Assembly (NCBI RefSeq): GCF_044324785.1
Contig: NZ_CP172127.1
Origin: Escherichia coli
GTDB taxonomy: Bacteria; Pseudomonadota; Gammaproteobacteria; Enterobacterales; Enterobacteriaceae
Direction: 5' to 3' (one strand)
Length of the DNA: 64,000 nucleotides
The notes below the pieces were generated by a model that was not told the origin of the DNA, did no database searches, and saw only the letters and a program-made list of their open reading frames with translations. The position numbers were made by a program, and so were the translations under genes. Every line of letters begins with the position of its first letter. Within the stretch, counting starts at the first letter, position 1. Positions 3,725-61,631 of this stretch are shown piece by piece.

Positions 3725-3830
3725 ATGTGTTCTTCGGTAGCGATTACGGTAGTGAACGGACCTGCTGTCTGAATGGCATCGATCCGCAAGCGTATCGGCG
3801 CCATATTCTGAGCGTACTACTGAAATGGCT
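3725..3830 (+). pseudogene. IS66-family transposase C-terminal remnant
   Basis: Translation FFGSDYGSER..CCLNGIDPQAYRRHILSVLLKW matches the C-terminus of the IS66 transposase at 57024-57383 (FFGSDHGGERGALLYGLIGTCRLNGIDPEAYLRHILSVLPEW) with a frame disruption; approximate bounds. Confidence 0.5.
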
Positions 3831-38810: not shown

Positions 38811-39080
38811 TTCATGGAGTTTGTTTACCATTCTGTTTTTCTTAAAAGTGAGTGTCTGTGCGGTCACTAAACTCGGTAATAAAGCAGTTCATTGCAGGAT
38901 AAGAAGCGTTTGGTTGTGTCGTTTTACCGTAAGAACCGACCGCCGTATGTAGCCATTAAGCCAGTATTGGTAACGTAGGTGCCCACCTTTTCAAACTGGT
39001 GGACGCCTGTTATGGAGCAAAAACATTATCCGCAGAACCCCGCAGATCATTTTCAAATGAGTTAAACTTCAAATGGTTAA

Positions 39081-39185
39081 ACTGGTTTTGCAACCAGGAG
39101 CCTCTGTTGCCCGTATTGCCCGGGAACACGATATCAATGATAACCTCCTGTTCAAATGGCTCAGACTCTGGCAGAACGTAAGGTA
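39081..39185 (+). pseudogene. IS66-family OrfA remnant
   Basis: LVLQPGASVARIAREHDINDNLLFKWLRLWQN matches the IS66 orfA at 58994-59419 (ASQPGACVAQIARENGVNDNVIFKWLRLWQNEG). Confidence 0.45.
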
Positions 39186-54832: not shown

Positions 54833-55624
54833 ATGATGAAAAATACAGGCTATATCTTAGCTCTTTGTCTGACAGCATCGGGGCATGTCCTGGCCCATGA
54901 TGTCTGGATTACCGGCAAACAGGCAGAGAACAACGTTATCGCAGAGATTGGTTATGGTCATAATTTCCCCTCAAAGGGCACGATTCCTGACAGAAGGGAT
55001 TTCTTTGAAACTCCCCGGCTTTATAACGGGAAAGAGACAATAACGCTGAAGCCAACATCCACGGATTATGTCTATAAAATTGAGTCTGCAGGCAACGGTA
55101 ATAGCTACGTTCTGTCAACGAAAATGAAACCGGGATACTGGTCGAGAACCTCGTCAGGATGGAAGCCTGTCAGCCGGGAGGGCAGAAATGATGTGGCATA
55201 CTGTGAGTTTGTGACTAAATATGCAAAATCTTTTATTCCTGGTGAACAGCAGATGCCAGCACAACTCTATCAGTATCCAATAGGGGATGAGCTTGAAATC
55301 ATTCCGTTATCCGATATCAGTCGTTTCGGTGAAGATGTGAAGCTGAAAGTTCTGTATAAAACTTCCCCGCTTGCCGGAGCCACTCTGGAGCTTGACTCTG
55401 TCAGTTATCTGAAATCATCCCGCCATACTCATGCGGCAGAGCATAAACATTCGGCTCATAAAGCAGAACTTACCTTTGTAAGTAATGAGGACGGTATCAT
55501 CACTGTACCCTCCCTTCATGTCGGGCAATGGCTAGCTAAAGTCAAAAATAAGAAAGTATTTCAGGACAAAAACCTGTGTGATGAAACTGTCGATGTGGCA
55601 ACCTTAAGCTTCTCCCGAAATTAA
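54833..55624 (+). CDS. Periplasmic DUF4198-like protein adjacent to the haem receptor
   Basis: 263-aa ORF; signal peptide followed by AHDVWI; 18 bp downstream of the receptor gene. Confidence 0.5.
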   Translation: MMKNTGYILALCLTASGHVLAHDVWITGKQAENNVIAEIGYGHNFPSKGTIPDRRDFFETPRLYNGKETITLKPTSTDYVYKIESAGNGNSYVLSTKMKPGYWSRTSSGWKPVSREGRNDVAYCEFVTKYAKSFIPGEQQMPAQLYQYPIGDELEIIPLSDISRFGEDVKLKVLYKTSPLAGATLELDSVSYLKSSRHTHAAEHKHSAHKAELTFVSNEDGIITVPSLHVGQWLAKVKNKKVFQDKNLCDETVDVATLSFSRN

Positions 55625-56038
55625 TAATACTATTCCTGCCCTGTAATTTACGGGCAGGGTATATCAACCGGAAATAGCCTACTGACATCCATGTATAAAG
55701 CCACATAATTATTTTGTTGATGTATCTTACCTAATACGTAAGCGTAAAGCCAATGCCGTCTGTAACTCCTGATCCTTGCAGACTAAATGTAAGCGCTCCT
55801 TCTGTGCCGTCTTGTGGTGGTTGTCCTGTCTGGCAACAATCGCGTCCATCTATTGATGGACACGAATGATGAATTCTCAGACAACAAAAGATATCACCGG
55901 CTTTCGCTCTTATTTTCCAGATGTATTGCGACTAATATTCGAAGAGCAATTATCTGTTCGGGCTATCGCACTGGAGCAGTTAGGCCTCAGTCATTCCACC
56001 GTTCATAATATCTTTCAACGGTTTAATGCCTCTGGCAT

Positions 56039-56111
56039 GTAAGCGTAAACCGACCGTTGTATTGACGCTTATTTATAGGGGAGAACTACGTTCCATGGCA
56101 GGAGTTCGTCA
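56039..56111 (-). repeat. Isolated 73-bp IS66-family terminal fragment
   Basis: GTAAGCGTAAACCGACCGTTGTATTGACGCTTATTTATAGGGGAGAACTACGTTCCATGGCAGGAGTTCGTCA, near-identical to the end of the IS66 copy at 56994. Confidence 0.55.
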
Positions 56112-56182
56112 GTAAGCGTACAGCCTGAACCGTCTGGTCAGAATCTGACGCATTAGACAAAGTGGTGTCCACAAAATAAGTA

Positions 56183-56584
56183 GTGGGAACCAAAGTGTCA
56201 GATATGCAGAAAAATGTGACTCCCGGCAGGCGAAAAGGCTGCCCTAATTATCCTCCCGAATTTAAACAGCTGCTCGTTGCTGCCTCCTGTGAACCCGGGA
56301 TATCCATCTCAAAACTTGCTCTTGAAAATGGCATTAACGCCAATCTGTTGTTCAAATGGCGACAACAATGGCGCGAGGGAAAGCTGCTATTACCTTCTTC
56401 AGAGAGCCCCCAGCTACTTCCTGTGACTCTCGATGCAGCTGCCGAACAGCCAGAATCGCTCGCAGAGGACCCGGAAACCCTCAGTATCAGCTGTGAGGTA
56501 ACGTTCCGGCACGGGACGCTCCGCTTCAATGGCAATGTCAGCGAAAAGCTCCTGACTCTGCTGATACAGGAACTGAAACGATGA
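56183..56584 (+). CDS. IS66-family OrfA
   Basis: 133-aa ORF; homologous to the orfA at 58994-59419. Confidence 0.7.
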   Translation: MGTKVSDMQKNVTPGRRKGCPNYPPEFKQLLVAASCEPGISISKLALENGINANLLFKWRQQWREGKLLLPSSESPQLLPVTLDAAAEQPESLAEDPETLSISCEVTFRHGTLRFNGNVSEKLLTLLIQELKR

Positions 56585-56928
56585 TCCCGTTACCTTCCGG
56601 GACCAAAATTTGGCTGGTTGCCGGTATCACCGATATGAGAAATGGCTTCAACGGCCTGGCTGCGAAAGTACAGACGGCGCTGAAAGACGATCCCATATCC
56701 GGCCATGTTTTCATTTTCCGGGGCCGCAGCGGCAGTCAGGTTAAACTGCTGTGGTCCACCGGTGACGGGCTGTGCCTCCTGACCAAGCGGCTGGAGCGTG
56801 GGCGCTTCGCCTGGCCGTCAGCCCGTGATGGCAAAGTGTTCCTTACGCAGGCGCAGCTGGCGATGCTGCTGGAAGGTATCGACTGGCGACAGCCTAAGCG
56901 GCTGCTGACCTCCCTGACCATGCTGTAA
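56581..56928 (+). CDS. IS66-family OrfB
   Basis: 115-aa ORF; LPSGTKIWLVAGITDMRNGFNGLA; homologous to orfB at 58647-58997. Confidence 0.75.
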   Translation: MIPLPSGTKIWLVAGITDMRNGFNGLAAKVQTALKDDPISGHVFIFRGRSGSQVKLLWSTGDGLCLLTKRLERGRFAWPSARDGKVFLTQAQLAMLLEGIDWRQPKRLLTSLTML

Positions 56929-57023
56929 ATCTCTTTATCCTGGTTGTCACAGAATAAGCCCGGTAAAATACGGGCTTATGAACGACATCTCTTGTAAGCG
57001 TCAACGGAGCACCGTATTGACGC

Positions 57024-58616
57024 TTATTTATTGGTGAGTACTACGTTCCATGGCAGGAGTTCGTCAACACAGTTGGAGGGCCATTCCGGCAGTACGCTCA
57101 GAATATGGCGCAGATACGCTTCCGGATCGATACCGTTCAGACGGCAGGTGCCGATCAGCCCGTACAGCAGTGCTCCACGCTCGCCGCCGTGATCGCTACC
57201 GAAGAACACGTAATTTTTCTTTCCGAGACAGACTGCACGAAGCGCTCTTTCCGCTGTGTTATTGTCCGCTTCTGCCAAACCATCATCACTGTAATAACAG
57301 AGGGCGTCCCACTGATTCAGTACATAGCTGAACGCTTCGCCCAGTCTGGATTTTTTCGACAGCGTGCCATTCTTCTCCACCATCCATTCATGCAGCGACG
57401 TCAGTAACGCTTTGCTTCGCTGCTGCCTGGCTGCAAGACGCTCTGACTCTGGTAATCCCCGTATTTCATCCTCGATGGCGTACAGTTCACTGATTCACTT
57501 CAGGGCTTCTTCTGCCGTCGCACTTTTGCTGCTGATGTATACATCGTGGATTTTTCGCCGGGCATGGGCCCAGCACGCAACTTCTGTCAGTGCACCACCT
57601 TCACGTTCTGCACTGAACAACCTGTCGTAACCTGTGAACGCATCCGCCTGCAGGATACCCCGGAAGGGGCGAAGGTGTTGCTCCGGGTGTTTCCCCTGCC
57701 GGTTCGGCGAGTACGCGAACCAGACCGCTGGAGGAGATGACGAACCCACATTGCGATCATCCCGGACATACGTCCAGATACGCCCTGTTTTCGCCTTTTT
57801 CTGACCCGGTGCCAGTACCTTTACCGGTGTGTCATCAGTGTGAACCTTGCGGGTGTTCATTACATAACGGTACAGGGCATCATTCACCGGTGTCATTAAC
57901 TGGCAGCACGCGTCAACCCAGTTGGAGAGTAAGGCCCGGCTCAGTTCGACACCCTGGCGGGCAAAGATTTCACTCTGACGATACAGTGGCAGATGTTCGC
58001 AGTATTTTCCCGTTAACACGCGGGCAAGTAATCCGGGGCCCGCGATACCACGCTCTATCGGGCGGGACGGCGCCGGTGCTTCAACAATACAGTCACATTT
58101 TGTACAGGCTTTTTTTACCCGTTCTGTGCGGATCACTTTCAGGGCACTGCTCACCAGTTCCAGCTGTTCAGCGCTGACTTCCCCCAGATAATCCAGCTCA
58201 CCGCCACACTCCGGGCAACAGCTTTCTTCTGGCTCCAGGCGGTGTATTTCACGGGGAAGGTGTGCCGGTAACGGACGACGATGGCGCGACTGTCGCAACT
58301 GGCGGGGAACCTGAGGATCGTCTTCCCGCCCACTGTAACGATCGCTGTCCTGTTCACGTTGTTTCAGCAGAGCCTCAGCCAGTTCAACTTCACGACGCAG
58401 TTTTTCAGAACGGGTACCGAACAGCATCCGGTGCAGTTTTTCTATCTGAGCCCGCAGATGTTCTATTTCCCGTTCATCTTCTTCGATCTTTTCTTCGGCA
58501 CGTGCCAGTGCAGAGCGCAGGAAGGCCTCCGTCTCTTCAACCAGACTCAGTTGCTGGTCTTTCTGACGGAGCTGGCTTTCCAGTTCTGCAATGCGAATGA
58601 GGTATTTCTGACTCAT
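57024..58616 (-). pseudogene. IS66-family transposase (OrfC) with in-frame TGA nonsense codon
   Basis: Track ORFs 57495-58616 and 57024-57383 share one frame; TGA at 57495-57497; reading through gives ...TAEEALK*ISELYAIEDEIRGL... Confidence 0.75.
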
Positions 58617-58646
58617 GGCCGTTTTTATAATGCGGCCAGGCGTTTT

Positions 58647-58997
58647 TTACAACATTGTCAGTGCGTTAAGGCGGAATGTTTTTGGCTGACGCCAGTCCAG
58701 CTTATCGAGGAGCATTGCCAGTTGCGAGCGGGTAATGGATACCTTGCCGTCACGTACCGCAGGCCAGATAAACTGGCCTTCCTCCAGGCGTTTGGTGAAC
58801 AGGCACAGACCATCAGCATCAGCCCAAAGAATTTTGACGGTGTCACCCCGTCGGCCACGGAAGATAAACAGGTGACCGGAGAAGGGATTATCATTCAGCA
58901 CATGTTGTACCTGTTCTCCCAGTCCGTTGAAGGATTTACGCATATCGGTAACGCCGGCAACGAGCCAGATACGGGTACCTGATGGGAGTGAGATCAT
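58647..58997 (-). CDS. IS66-family OrfB
   Basis: 116-aa ORF; LPSGTRIWLVAGVTDMRKSFNGLG. Confidence 0.8.
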   Translation of the reverse strand: MISLPSGTRIWLVAGVTDMRKSFNGLGEQVQHVLNDNPFSGHLFIFRGRRGDTVKILWADADGLCLFTKRLEEGQFIWPAVRDGKVSITRSQLAMLLDKLDWRQPKTFRLNALTML

Positions 58998-59419
58998 CTT
59001 CCCCTCCCGGTCAGTTCACGGATCAACACTGTGAGCAGCTCTGGCGATGGATTTTCCAGCGTCATGTTACCGTGACGGAATTCCACCTTGCAGGAACTGG
59101 CACTGACTCTGGTCTGAGTGGAAGTGGATAAAGACGGCGCAATGGCCGCCACAGGTTCTTTCTGCTCATCCGGCGTTATTTCTACAGGTAATAATTCAAC
59201 GCCAGTGTCAGAAGAGGTCGTTACCGGAAGACGCCGCGAAACACGCCCTTCGTTCTGCCAGAGCCTGAGCCATTTGAAAATAACATTATCATTGACGCCA
59301 TTTTCACGTGCAATCTGTGCAACACAAGCTCCAGGTTGTGATGCCAGTTCCACCATACGAAGTTTGAATTCATTCGAATAGTTTTTACGAGGTTCTTTTC
59401 GCCAGTCCTGTAATTCCAT
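58994..59419 (-). CDS. IS66-family OrfA
   Basis: 141-aa ORF; ASQPGACVAQIARENGVNDNVIFKWLRLWQ. Confidence 0.75.
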   Translation of the reverse strand: MELQDWRKEPRKNYSNEFKLRMVELASQPGACVAQIARENGVNDNVIFKWLRLWQNEGRVSRRLPVTTSSDTGVELLPVEITPDEQKEPVAAIAPSLSTSTQTRVSASSCKVEFRHGNMTLENPSPELLTVLIRELTGRGR

Positions 59420-59504
59420 ACTTAGATGTCCGTCTATATCAGATGGGCGTCTAAGTTACCAATTCTCGTCTGATGGCTACATACGGCGGTCAGTTTACGC
59501 TTAC

Positions 59505-60797
59505 CTTTATCCCGACAGACGACGTATATTTACCAGTAAGGCCAACCCGGTTGCGCCCTTTGAACCAGAAGTCAAACGTCAGGCTGTCATGGCACTCTGT
59601 ACACGACAAGTATCAGCCAGTGAAATCGCCAGGCGTATTGGTGTCAGTCGTGCGGTATTGTATAAATGGAAAGATAAAATTATCGGCAACAGTGCTTACC
59701 AGACTATGCGTAAACATAACGAACCTTCCCTGGAGGCAGAACGCGATGCGTTGCGGGAGGAAGTCGCCCGACTGAATCAGGAAATACGCCGCCGGCAGAT
59801 GGAGCTGGATATTCTGAAAAAGGCGGAGGAAATCATAAAAAAAGACCCGGGCATCAGTATCAGTCACCTGAACAACAGAGAGAAAACGAAGATCGCTGAT
59901 GCCCTGAGACAAACATATCCCCTGACAGAATTACTGCATGTTCTGGGCCTTGCCCGTAGCAGTTATTTTTATCACCGGGCTGCACTGAAAGCCGGTGATA
60001 AATACGCCACGATACGTACGATGCTGACAGATATATTTAACAGTAATTACCAGTGTTATGGCTATCGTCGCCTGCATGCGATGCTCAGGCATGAGGGGGG
60101 GCGGCTATCAGAAAAGGTTGTACGCAGACTTATGGTGGAAGAACAGCTTGTCGTCAGCCGTAACCGTCGTCGCCGCTACAGCTCATATTGCGGAGAAATC
60201 GGACCGGCTCCGGATAACCTTATCGCCAGAGATTTTAAGGCGGAGCAACCTAATCAGAAATGGCTGACAGATATCACGGAGTTCCACCTCCCTGCAGGTA
60301 AAGTCTGGCTATCATCGGTGGTGGACTGCTTCGATGGAAAAGTTGTGAGCTGGTCTCTCAGTACACGCCCCGATGCTGAACTGGTCAACACTATGCTGGA
60401 TAGCGCTGTCGAAACGTTAAATGCTGGCGAACGACCGGTGATACACAGTGACAGAGGTGGGCATTATCGCTGGTCAGGCTGGCTGGAAAGAGTGAATGCA
60501 GAAGGTCTTATTCGCTCAATGTCCCGCAAAGGATGTTCACCTGATAATGCGGCATGCGAAGGCTTTTTCGGCAGACTGAAAACGGAAATGTATCATGGGC
60601 GTAAATGGTCGGGCATCACGCCAGAAAAGTTCATGCAGCAAGTGGATACTTACATCAGATGGTATAACGAGCGGCGTATAAAATTATCGCCGGGTGCAGT
60701 CAGCCCCAAAATGTACCGCCAACAATGCGGGCTGGAATGATAAAGCAGTCCAGGAAATCGTCCGCATCCCCAGAACGGTCAAACATCGTGGCGTTGA
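59505..60797 (+). mobile_element. DDE (rve) IS-like element, copy 2, 5'-truncated by the IS66 insertion
   Basis: Begins mid-gene directly after the IS66 end at 59504; right inverted repeat ends ...CGTGGCGTTGACA at 60797. Confidence 0.65.
59589..60740 (+). pseudogene. Single-ORF HTH plus rve (DDE) transposase, N-terminally truncated
   Basis: 383-aa ORF; HTH SASEIARRIGVSRAVLYKWK, coiled coil, DDE core ...WLTDITEF..HSDRGGHYRW..; lacks the MFTEEQK N-terminal region seen in copy 1. Confidence 0.6.
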
Positions 60798-61631
60798 CAA
60801 CGGGTTCCTGAGTCCGGTGAAGCGCCGGTTACTGGAAAATGTTGTGTACGTCATAACAGAAACGGAGAGAAAAACGGCGATGCAAATCAGGCGGAGAAGG
60901 GTGTATCAGCGGTTACTGAAGGTTGACCCGCTGAAGTGCATCCTGTGCGGAGGTCAGATGCGGTTTACGGGGCTGAAGCGGGGCTACCGTCTGGCAGAGC
61001 TGGTCATGATGCATGAGCCACTGGCACGACAGCGGGTATACAGCTGAGAGCCGCAGAGGGGAAGTTGCGTCCATTTTTTGAGGAATGGAGCAAAAAATCA
61101 TCACAGATATAAAAAATCAATCAATGAAAGCCATTTAATTGCCGGTGCATTGTGGATGCAGTCCTCATGGTACGTAACCAGAGTTGAATAAACATCCATT
61201 TTTTTGTGTTTTTTTAACCTCCCCGGGTTTTTAATTCCTGTCGATTAAAAGTGTTAGATTATTTGGTTAAGAGTTCTCTCGTCCTATTTATTCAGGCGTT
61301 ATCACGGATATGCAGATCGCTAAGTCAGTTGTAAGAAAACCAGACAGTGCACATCATTATACCTAGGTCTTCTCTGGAAAAATACTTAGGAATAATTTAT
61401 GTAAAACAGGTTGTCGTCTTCATGATTTAAACGCAGTACATATATATACTCTATAATAAATACAGGGAGTATCACGAGACGTCTGGATAAGAGGAATAAC
61501 CAGAATAAATTGGTAAGGAATAAAGACACTTATTTCTATTGAGAAAAAACATTCATCCTGATGTGATTAGTATCAATGAAATAATGTGCTTGTATGGTTG
61601 ATAAAAAATGCATCACTAAAGAAAAAACAGT

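Follow-up and report, generated by a model that had tools for sequence, protein, structure and literature searches.

Five IS66-family pieces, stacked in the order Z, Y, X, ISEc8 fragment and ISEc23-like element, occupy 3,767 bp (55738–59504) of the 64-kb window, by which we mean the whole stretch of DNA analysed. Taken as a whole, they are best explained as a compound IS66-family element that has moved as a unit and that carries a private TGA in the window, a reading that we consider quite likely to be correct. An earlier note on this DNA had described an IS66 pile-up at 56039–59504, which is the right-hand 3.5 kb of the 3,767-bp unit. The stack starts 301 bp to the left of that boundary, with two extra IS66-family left-end fragments (55738–55788 and 55789–56038). 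The features are as follows.

55738–59504, no strand assigned: composite unit (Z, Y, X, ISEc8 fragment, ISEc23-like element), 3,767 bp between inverted IS66-type termini.
55738–55788, plus strand: fragment Z, the first 51 bp (left IR end) of an IS66-family element and the composite's outer left terminus.
55789–56038, plus strand: fragment Y, the left end (250 bp) of another IS66-family element, with an IRL that begins GTAAGCGCTCC.
56039–56111, minus strand: fragment X (73 bp), the IRR, or tnpC-proximal, end of a third such element, starting with GTAAGCG.
56112–56993, plus strand: nt 1–882 of ISEc8, comprising the IRL, tnpA, tnpB and the first 16 nt of tnpC.
56994–59504, minus strand: complete ISEc23-like element, 2,511 bp, with 59504 as the composite's outer right terminus.
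57495–57497, minus strand: in-frame TGA at tnpC codon 374, which is CGA (Arg) in other copies.
59505–60772, plus strand: fragment of an IS3-family element without its left 337 bp, adjoining the composite's right terminus.
60773–61047, plus strand: C-terminal fragment of an IS91-family transposase, part of the surrounding IS debris outside the composite.

Alignment to reference elements, a check proposed in the earlier note, bore out the pieces it had described and placed the two additional fragments in the same family. Fragment Z opens with GTAAGCGTAAAGCC. The same 51 bp form the left end of an IS66-family element both in E. coli Nissle 1917 (L009), where it runs on into tnpA, and in TB06051. 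Fragment Y contains the start of an HTH-type tnpA, 58 codons long (ORF 55866–56039), with weak HTH matches in Pfam. It shares 90.8% identity with an IS66-family element of plasmid NZ_CP196121 (L007), over that element's left end and the beginning of its tnpA. In the RefSeq annotation, fragment Y appears just as a partial ‘helix-turn-helix domain-containing protein’. The 73-bp IS66 end fragment that had been reported is indeed present as fragment X, 88% identical to 56994–57066, where the full element has its tnpC-proximal end. Read in reverse complement, fragment X still supplies the final 13 tnpC codons and the stop. Complementarity between its terminus and the one at 59481–59504 is 88%. No parent of fragment X with at least 95% identity was found among the matches listed from E. 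coli genomes and PLSDB, where the matches outside the array reached 89–90%.

The plus-strand left end with orfA and orfB only, also reported earlier, is the ISEc8 piece. Its GTAAGCG terminus begins at 56112, and it contains tnpA (56204–56584), tnpB (56581–56928) and the 16 nt of tnpC (56978–56993), with the Pfam domains HTH_Tnp_1 and TnpB_IS66. It aligns from nt 1 of the intact 2,442-bp ISEc8 reference (L005 2500–4941) and is 99.0–99.3% identical over 881 bp to annotated ISEc8 copies, these being copies whose tnpC NCBI names ‘ISEc8 family’. The other 1,560 bp are missing, so that with 36% of the element retained the piece is a fragment and not a complete member.

The remaining piece is, as had been claimed, a full-length minus-strand IS66 element with both inverted repeats (56994–57017 and 59481–59504; 24 nt, 83% complementary, GTAAGCG at both starts). 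Its genes are tnpA (58994–59419, HTH_Tnp_1), tnpB (58647–58997, TnpB_IS66) and tnpC (57024–58616), the last with LZ_Tnp_IS66, zf-IS66, DDE_Tnp_IS66 and DDE_Tnp_IS66_C in the intact allele; by its termini and this three-gene set with family domains, it belongs to the IS66 family. It is colinear end to end with the ISEc23 of pO145 (L004 4001–6532), from which it differs by a 21-bp in-frame difference that leaves the window's tnpC shorter and by two divergent patches. The names ISEc23 and ISEc8 are those of the NCBI annotation of close copies. Like the window elements, these family members have GTAAGCG termini; their gene set is tnpA (HTH), tnpB (PF05717) and tnpC (leucine zipper, zinc finger, DDE_Tnp_IS66), family length is 2.4–2.5 kb, and the reference copies have 8-bp target duplications. 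Unlike other ISEc23 and ISEc8 copies, the ISEc23-like copy in the window has a private nonsense codon and no duplication, and the ISEc8 copy consists of the first 882 bp only. Five GTAAGCG termini of the same polarity lie inside 1.26 kb, and because five of the six plus-strand GTAAGCG heptamers in the window cluster in 55738–56994, we rejected chance as their source.

The evidence for movement comes from two IncF plasmids that carry the whole stack at different sites, each with a perfect 8-bp duplication. The copy on pMS1679-1 (L013 2700–6466) has TGTTTATC on both sides and lies inside traR, whose frame is continuous after removal of the element and one repeat copy; that on p14EC020b (L014 2700–6466) has CTTAATTA on both sides and lies in the repA-proximal region. 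Both copies have the full 3,767 bp, and exact junction patterns, used to check colinearity, matched at each internal junction; in both the duplication sits directly before fragment Z. Since the whole stack is found at two plasmid sites, each with its own perfect duplication, it is, judging from these flanks, a compound IS66-family unit and transposes as one. The outer termini (55738–55764 and 59478–59504) are inverted, 27 nt long and 78% complementary. Both are ‘left-end’ types, the left one coming from a different IS66-family member. Only two transposed copies were found, which argues that mobility is rare.

Within the window itself, we searched for 8-bp target duplications and found none around any piece, nor around the 3,466-bp or 3,767-bp spans. 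The full ISEc23-like element is flanked by CATCTCTT and CTTTATCC, which is not a duplication. The 8-mer CTTTATCC does recur, at 56933–56940 and 59505–59512, and we judged this to be chance (~5% expected). The intact ISEc8 reference has the duplication TCCCATTC, and sister ISEc23 copies have GAACCGTC (inside an ISEc8 IRL) and GATACTTT; its lack in the window copy is therefore no sign of a different family and reflects instead a nested and rearranged history. The earlier note had proposed successive insertions of the elements into each other. This stands in that different IS66-family pieces are cut at each other's termini, but with no duplication at any piece, DNA must have been lost or ends re-chosen, and simple nesting alone is insufficient. 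For the chromosomal copy as a whole, a duplication is lacking because the right flank has been replaced by the truncated IS3-family element; a chromosomal copy with a duplication was not seen in the genomes searched.

We asked how widespread the array is among the 5,426 complete E. coli genomes in RefSeq. The left-end stack was present in 119 records from 117 genomes, a 101-bp query running from the chromosomal flank through Z into the start of Y was at least 80% covered in 130 genomes, and junction counts ranged from 105 to 130 genomes, all fitting one array. The window array differs from the best arrays listed by at least 4 bases, as counted from bit scores. The internal junctions are identical at three unrelated places, the chromosomal island and the two plasmid sites, and the stack is unchanged in ~117 genomes, which indicates that it was put together a single time and has since been passed on or moved as a block.

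The window copy differs from its relatives in tnpC. Translation bore out the reported in-frame TGA: the gene is a single 531-codon frame whose sole interruption is this codon (374/530), which falls within the DDE_Tnp_IS66 domain (residues 189–479). The pO145 and CLSC36 copies have CGA there, position 57497 being A in the window and G in CLSC36; a C-to-T change has turned Arg374 into the stop. Of 6,158 matching places in those 5,426 genomes, not one carries the exact 61-mer containing the TGA, and the best matches listed all differ at one of the 61 bases, so that the TGA is private to the window sequence among the E. coli genomes searched. Every annotated copy examined outside the window (CLSC36, GPEC1035, N61 and both plasmids) has an uninterrupted frame. 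As the TGA cuts the catalytic domain, the window copy should make no active transposase. With both ends kept and its own TnpC stopped, it could move only via transposase supplied in trans from another ISEc23-type copy. It thereby resembles non-autonomous IS derivatives, which keep both ends without a working transposase, in being predicted to make no active TnpC, but it is one base rather than a deletion away from autonomous copies, and its tnpA and tnpB are open.

Several other explanations bear on the mobility of the stack. The earlier note had read the region as an insertion hotspot followed by decay, in effect a passive graveyard in which elements landed repeatedly and independently and had no mobility of their own. 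IS debris all round (IS3 and IS91 fragments to the right, IS110 and IS1 nearby), later IS100, ISEc45 or ISKpn26 insertions in or beside the array in some strains, and the missing duplications in the window would all fit such a history. Nevertheless, we find it improbable, and the plasmid copies already largely refute it: base-identical junctions at two plasmid sites, each with an 8-bp duplication, are not what a local hotspot leaves behind, and an array constant across ~117 genomes points to one assembly event rather than recurrent hits. Nor does decay describe the array, since the transposase is intact in the other annotated copies and the TGA is confined to the window. Homologous recombination between plasmid and chromosome could in principle have delivered the plasmid copies instead of transposition, given that genome 14EC020 bears the array on both its chromosome and its plasmid and that IS copies provide homology. 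We regard this as highly improbable, because recombination cannot make perfect 8-bp direct repeats of the plasmid target on both sides at two targets, and the plasmid flanks (traR and the repA-proximal region) have nothing in common with the island flanks.

Other concerns touch the sequence itself. Junctions or the TGA might be artefacts of collapsed or mixed IS repeats or of a single miscalled base, which we rate as unlikely though deserving more weight than the preceding alternatives. All 4 differences between the window and CLSC36 over 16,962 bp fall in the repeated ISEc23-like copy, at three of them the window has the pO145 ISEc23 allele, as cross-copy read mixing would give, and the TGA allele is found nowhere else in the 5,426 genomes. 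Against this, every junction recurs in more than 100 independent complete assemblies, which excludes a structural artefact and disposes of the assembly collapse that the earlier note had named as a possible refutation. The three shared alleles also occur in other array-bearing genomes, N61 and M21170 among them, which argues for real polymorphism or exchange between paralogous copies, and mixing cannot supply a TGA that no ISEc23-like copy in these genomes has. The TGA could also be a base-call error; it is a single base in one assembly. Decoding of the TGA as selenocysteine, or its readthrough, such that transposase is still made, is vanishingly unlikely, and we rejected it. All that speaks for it is the island's position at the tRNA-Sec gene, a coincidence; the codon is not conserved, with CGA at all 6,158 other places, so that no recoding signal can have evolved, and the 70 nt downstream fold no better than shuffled sequence (z = +1.57).

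We return to the compound element and to how it may have arisen. Four successive IS66-into-IS66 insertions would account for its layout: Y would have entered Z 51 bp from Z's end, X would have entered Y at nt 250, ISEc8 would have entered X 73 bp from X's end, and the ISEc23-like element would have entered ISEc8 at nt 882. All four interrupted elements would then have lost their right-hand halves, either by a deletion beside the ISEc23-like left end or because transposase paired that left end with the outermost Z terminus and not with its own right end. The product has one complete tnpA-tnpB-tnpC set and two inverted IS66-type termini. We infer both the order of events and the manner of right-half loss from the layout; intermediates with right halves still present were not seen in the genomes searched.

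More tentatively, and with somewhat less than even confidence, we suggest that the stack may be an undescribed compound IS66-family transposon born from IS debris, with a related possibility of end-targeting. An ISEc23-type transposase would pair its own left end with another family member's left end 3.7 kb away, and four dead IS fragments would travel as passengers. Three IS66-into-IS66 insertions in the window (nt 51, 73 and 250), one in pO145 (nt 23) and one in AHB7 (nt 60) all lie no more than 250 bp from the target element's terminus, a pattern hinting that the ends of resident relatives are favoured targets of IS66-family transposases. We found no description of IS66 target preference or of compound units in the literature searched, which did not cover ISfinder. 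A 60-bp IS66 end with an ISEc8-like element in AHB7 (L006) resembled a second compound unit; its flanks share ATATTTATCG, though offset by 1–3 nt and in different genes.

Compound or ‘surrogate-end’ units, in which a transposase pairs its own end with a distant compatible end, include composites of the Tn5/Tn10 type and ISEcp1, which reads past its own right end. The stack is like these in its single transposase source, its two inverted compatible termini with everything between them mobilised, and the family-typical duplication round the whole unit at independent sites. It differs in that its passenger is made up of fragments of four IS66-family elements with no cargo gene, that its outer left end belongs to another member of the family and that both outer ends are left-type.

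The mechanism of IS66-family transposition is still poorly characterised. The outcome seen on the plasmids suggests that IS66-family machinery can accept paired left-type ends and use a heterologous end matching only 78% over 27 nt. Apparent IS junk can evidently be re-mobilised, in one case knocking out traR of an F-type plasmid. Current annotation splits the region into a ‘helix-turn-helix protein’, two copies each of tnpA and tnpB, and a single tnpC, so that the 3.77-kb moving unit goes unrecognised. This is otherwise ordinary biology, an IS pile in an E. coli genomic island with one modest twist, and it has no bearing on any long-standing open question. The practical consequence for this genome is minor: it holds one further inactive IS copy, in a selC-type island of ExPEC/APEC.

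At the chromosomal site, the ‘empty site’ of SF-173 diverges exactly at 55737|55738, the Z terminus, and has a cobW-family gene where the stack sits; this operon partner has been lost at the chromosomal insertion site. The one fully annotated neighbour, CLSC36, carries the array in a selC-associated island. There the array follows a TonB-receptor/DUF4198 gene pair, has PTS sugar-uptake and transketolase genes upstream, and is separated from an integrase gene and tRNA-Sec by ~8 kb. Array-bearing genomes come largely from poultry and human extraintestinal isolates. AGI-3 of strain BEN2908 is described as a selC-associated genomic island (PMC3349570). Our comparison is with this class of islands of avian and extraintestinal pathogenic E. 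coli; the likeness lies in site, integrase, upstream genes in CLSC36 and host range, whereas the window's island is mosaic relative to CLSC36 upstream of ~40.6 kb.

To the right of the composite, the IS3-family fragment is 97–98% identical to IS3-family copies in many genomes, and an intact copy with the left inverted repeat is present in AR_0058 (L011). We considered whether this fragment and the HTH fragment on the left were halves of one interrupted element and rejected the idea, as the HTH part is an IS66-family tnpA start and the missing part of the IS3 fragment differs from it in sequence. The IS3-family fragment is annotated as ‘IS3 family transposase, missing N-terminus’, and the IS91-family fragment beside it as ‘IS91 family transposase, missing N-terminus’ in CLSC36 and N61.

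IS66-family pieces are stacked over 3,767 bp (55738-59504), the terminus of the next piece truncating each one. The stack and its right-hand neighbors read as follows:

55738-55788, plus strand: Z, the first 51 bp of an IS66-family element
55789-56038, plus strand: Y, 250 bp, an IS66-family left end with the first 58 tnpA codons
56039-56111, minus strand: X, 73 bp, beginning with the IS66-family terminus GTAAGCG
56112-56993, plus strand: ISEc8 fragment, the left 882 bp with tnpA, tnpB and 16 nt of tnpC
56994-59504, minus strand: ISEc23-like element, complete, 2,511 bp, with 24-nt inverted repeats
59505-60772, plus strand: IS3-family element to the right of the stack, its left 337 bp missing
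beyond the IS3-family fragment, right of the stack: IS91 fragment

The 64-kb window has six plus-strand copies of GTAAGCG, five of them at 55738, 55789, 56039, 56112 and 56994, and the right-hand halves of four stack elements are absent. Direct reading of the region and alignments bear out the three pieces that an earlier note described at 56039-59504, the ISEc8 fragment and the ISEc23-like element being colinear with reference elements; Z and Y, left of 56039, had been missed. Assembly collapse, raised there as a possible source of the junctions, is excluded because the same junctions recur in more than 100 independent assemblies.

An element of E. coli Nissle 1917 has a left end identical to Z and runs on into tnpA; Y is 90.8% identical to a plasmid-borne IS66-family element (NZ_CP196121). 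X shares 88% identity with the beginning of the ISEc23-like element (56994-57066), and its reverse complement still encodes the last 13 tnpC codons and the stop. The ISEc8 fragment shows 99.0-99.3% identity to copies with a transposase labeled 'ISEc8 family' by NCBI; its alignment to a 2,442-bp reference, intact and flanked by the 8-bp duplication TCCCATTC, starts at nt 1 of the latter. Apart from two divergent patches and an in-frame difference of 21 bp, the ISEc23-like element follows pO145 ISEc23 colinearly over its whole length. The 9-mer GCTCCTTCT in the left inverted repeat of Y (55794-55802) recurs ~56-64 nt into the Z-type parent of Nissle 1917, just past the Z|Y breakpoint, and may reflect microhomology or coincidence.

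The 8-bp target duplications that the earlier note proposed to look for flank no piece of the stack in the window; the ISEc23-like element, for example, lies between CATCTCTT and CTTTATCC. Sister copies do have them: ISEc23 lies inside the left repeat of ISEc8 in pO145 (pO145-13516, L004 3978-8959) with the duplication GAACCGTC, and ISEc23 of AR_0058 has GATACTTT. Simple nesting is therefore not the whole story.

Two IncF plasmids carry the 3,466 bp of 56039-59504 at 99.9% identity, and the homology runs leftward through Y and Z to end exactly at the Z terminus. In pMS1679-1 the 3,767-bp block lies between two copies of TGTTTATC within traR, whose frame is continuous once the insert is taken out; in p14EC020b the same block lies between two copies of CTTAATTA near repA, at an unrelated site. 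Exact-pattern searches placed all internal junctions at equal offsets in both plasmids. With two independent sites, each bearing the family's 8-bp duplication outside the whole stack, the stack evidently transposes as a single unit. Homologous recombination was rejected as the origin of the plasmid copies, as it would not create such duplications. The ends of the unit, the Z terminus and the left terminus of the ISEc23-like element, are 78% complementary over 27 nt (55738-55764 against 59478-59504).

The left-end stack was found in 117 genomes (119 records) among the 5,426 complete E. coli genomes searched, and a 101-bp query that runs from the chromosomal flank through Z into the first part of Y was covered to at least 80% in 130 genomes. 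The hosts are mostly poultry and human extraintestinal isolates. The array apparently arose once. SF-173 has the uninterrupted site: its sequence departs from that of the window precisely at 55737|55738 (window 55620-55737 against L015 2420-2720) and continues into a cobW-family gene missing from the window. In SF-173 this GTPase gene lies downstream of TonB-receptor and DUF4198 genes, so the window has a putative metal-uptake operon minus its third gene. CLSC36, which matches the window at 99.98% from ~40.6 kb to its end, carries its array downstream of paired genes for a TonB-dependent receptor and DUF4198; an integrase gene and tRNA-Sec are ~8 kb away. Segments of window 1-40600 are 80-98.6% identical or absent in CLSC36; the island is thus a mosaic, its modules differing in history.

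We propose that IS66-family elements inserted into one another in succession, in an order that we infer. Their right halves may have been lost by a deletion beside the left end of the ISEc23-like element or, alternatively, as the transposase chose the outer Z end over its own right end; moves of the unit would be driven by ISEc23-type TnpA/B/C. The five IS66-into-IS66 insertions seen are all near-terminal, a possible hint of end-targeting from a small sample in which two cases came from biased queries. One of the five is in pO145-13516, where ISEc23 entered the left inverted repeat of ISEc8 at 23 bp and ISEc8 is intact apart from this.

The in-frame TGA reported earlier at 57495-57497 is indeed the sole interruption of the single 531-codon tnpC frame of the ISEc23-like element. 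Position 57497 is A in the window and G in CLSC36, changing CGA (Arg374) to TGA. A 61-mer centered on the stop matched 6,158 places in 2,403 of the 5,426 genomes searched; none was exact, and the top matches listed all differ at 1 of 61 bases, so the TGA allele is apparently private to the window's assembled sequence. It falls within DDE_Tnp_IS66 (the domain at residues 189-479) and costs TnpC its C-terminal element. The catalytic glutamate would lie downstream of the CWAH motif, in the part that is lost; this copy would now be helper-dependent. Selenocysteine decoding was rejected, as other copies have CGA and the downstream fold is no better than shuffled sequence. Over 17 kb the window and CLSC36 differ at four positions, all within the repeated ISEc23-like element. 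For three of the four, the window has the pO145 ISEc23 allele, and other array-bearing genomes equal the window exactly across two of these three. We read the three alleles as probable copy-to-copy exchange rather than error.

'Hotspot and decay', as the locus had been summarized, is thus only partly right: the pieces are nested and truncated and one tnpC is broken, but the stack moves as a unit and has a single origin. Every component is from the well-known IS66 family, and many RefSeq genomes annotate the array piece by piece. The sole novelty is a stack apparently acting as a compound transposable unit made of IS debris, of which we found no description in the papers searched, ISfinder aside; overall the locus is ordinary, with one modest twist.

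A few strains have the array or its IS3 neighbor split by later insertions of IS100, ISEc45 or ISKpn26 (GPEC1035, L002 3153-4954; NZ_CM129879; NZ_CM196105). N61 (L012 4204-6620) has the junctions of the window around a canonical ISEc23 interior: its full element has the canonical 1,614-bp ISEc23 tnpC and differs from that of the window in tnpB allele. This points to gene conversion among paralogous IS copies, with the locus itself staying fixed. In AHB7 (L006 3501-6001) a 60-bp ISEc23/IS682-like end fragment directly precedes an ISEc8-like element, with ATATTTATCG in both outer flanks, offset by 1-3 nt; this junction resembles X|ISEc8, with the break displaced by 13 bp, and so is an independent event. 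In the ST131-type AR_0058 (L011 5227-5404) the IS3-family element that abuts the array sits in ISEc8 tnpA (~nt 177) and adjoins an ISEc23 copy; these three IS types co-locate repeatedly. Elsewhere in the window, two small IS66-family remnants lie at 3733-3829 and 38934-39183, one a tnpC 3' fragment (87% identity to 57080-57157) and the other a tnpA-like stretch (70% identity to 59247-59495).
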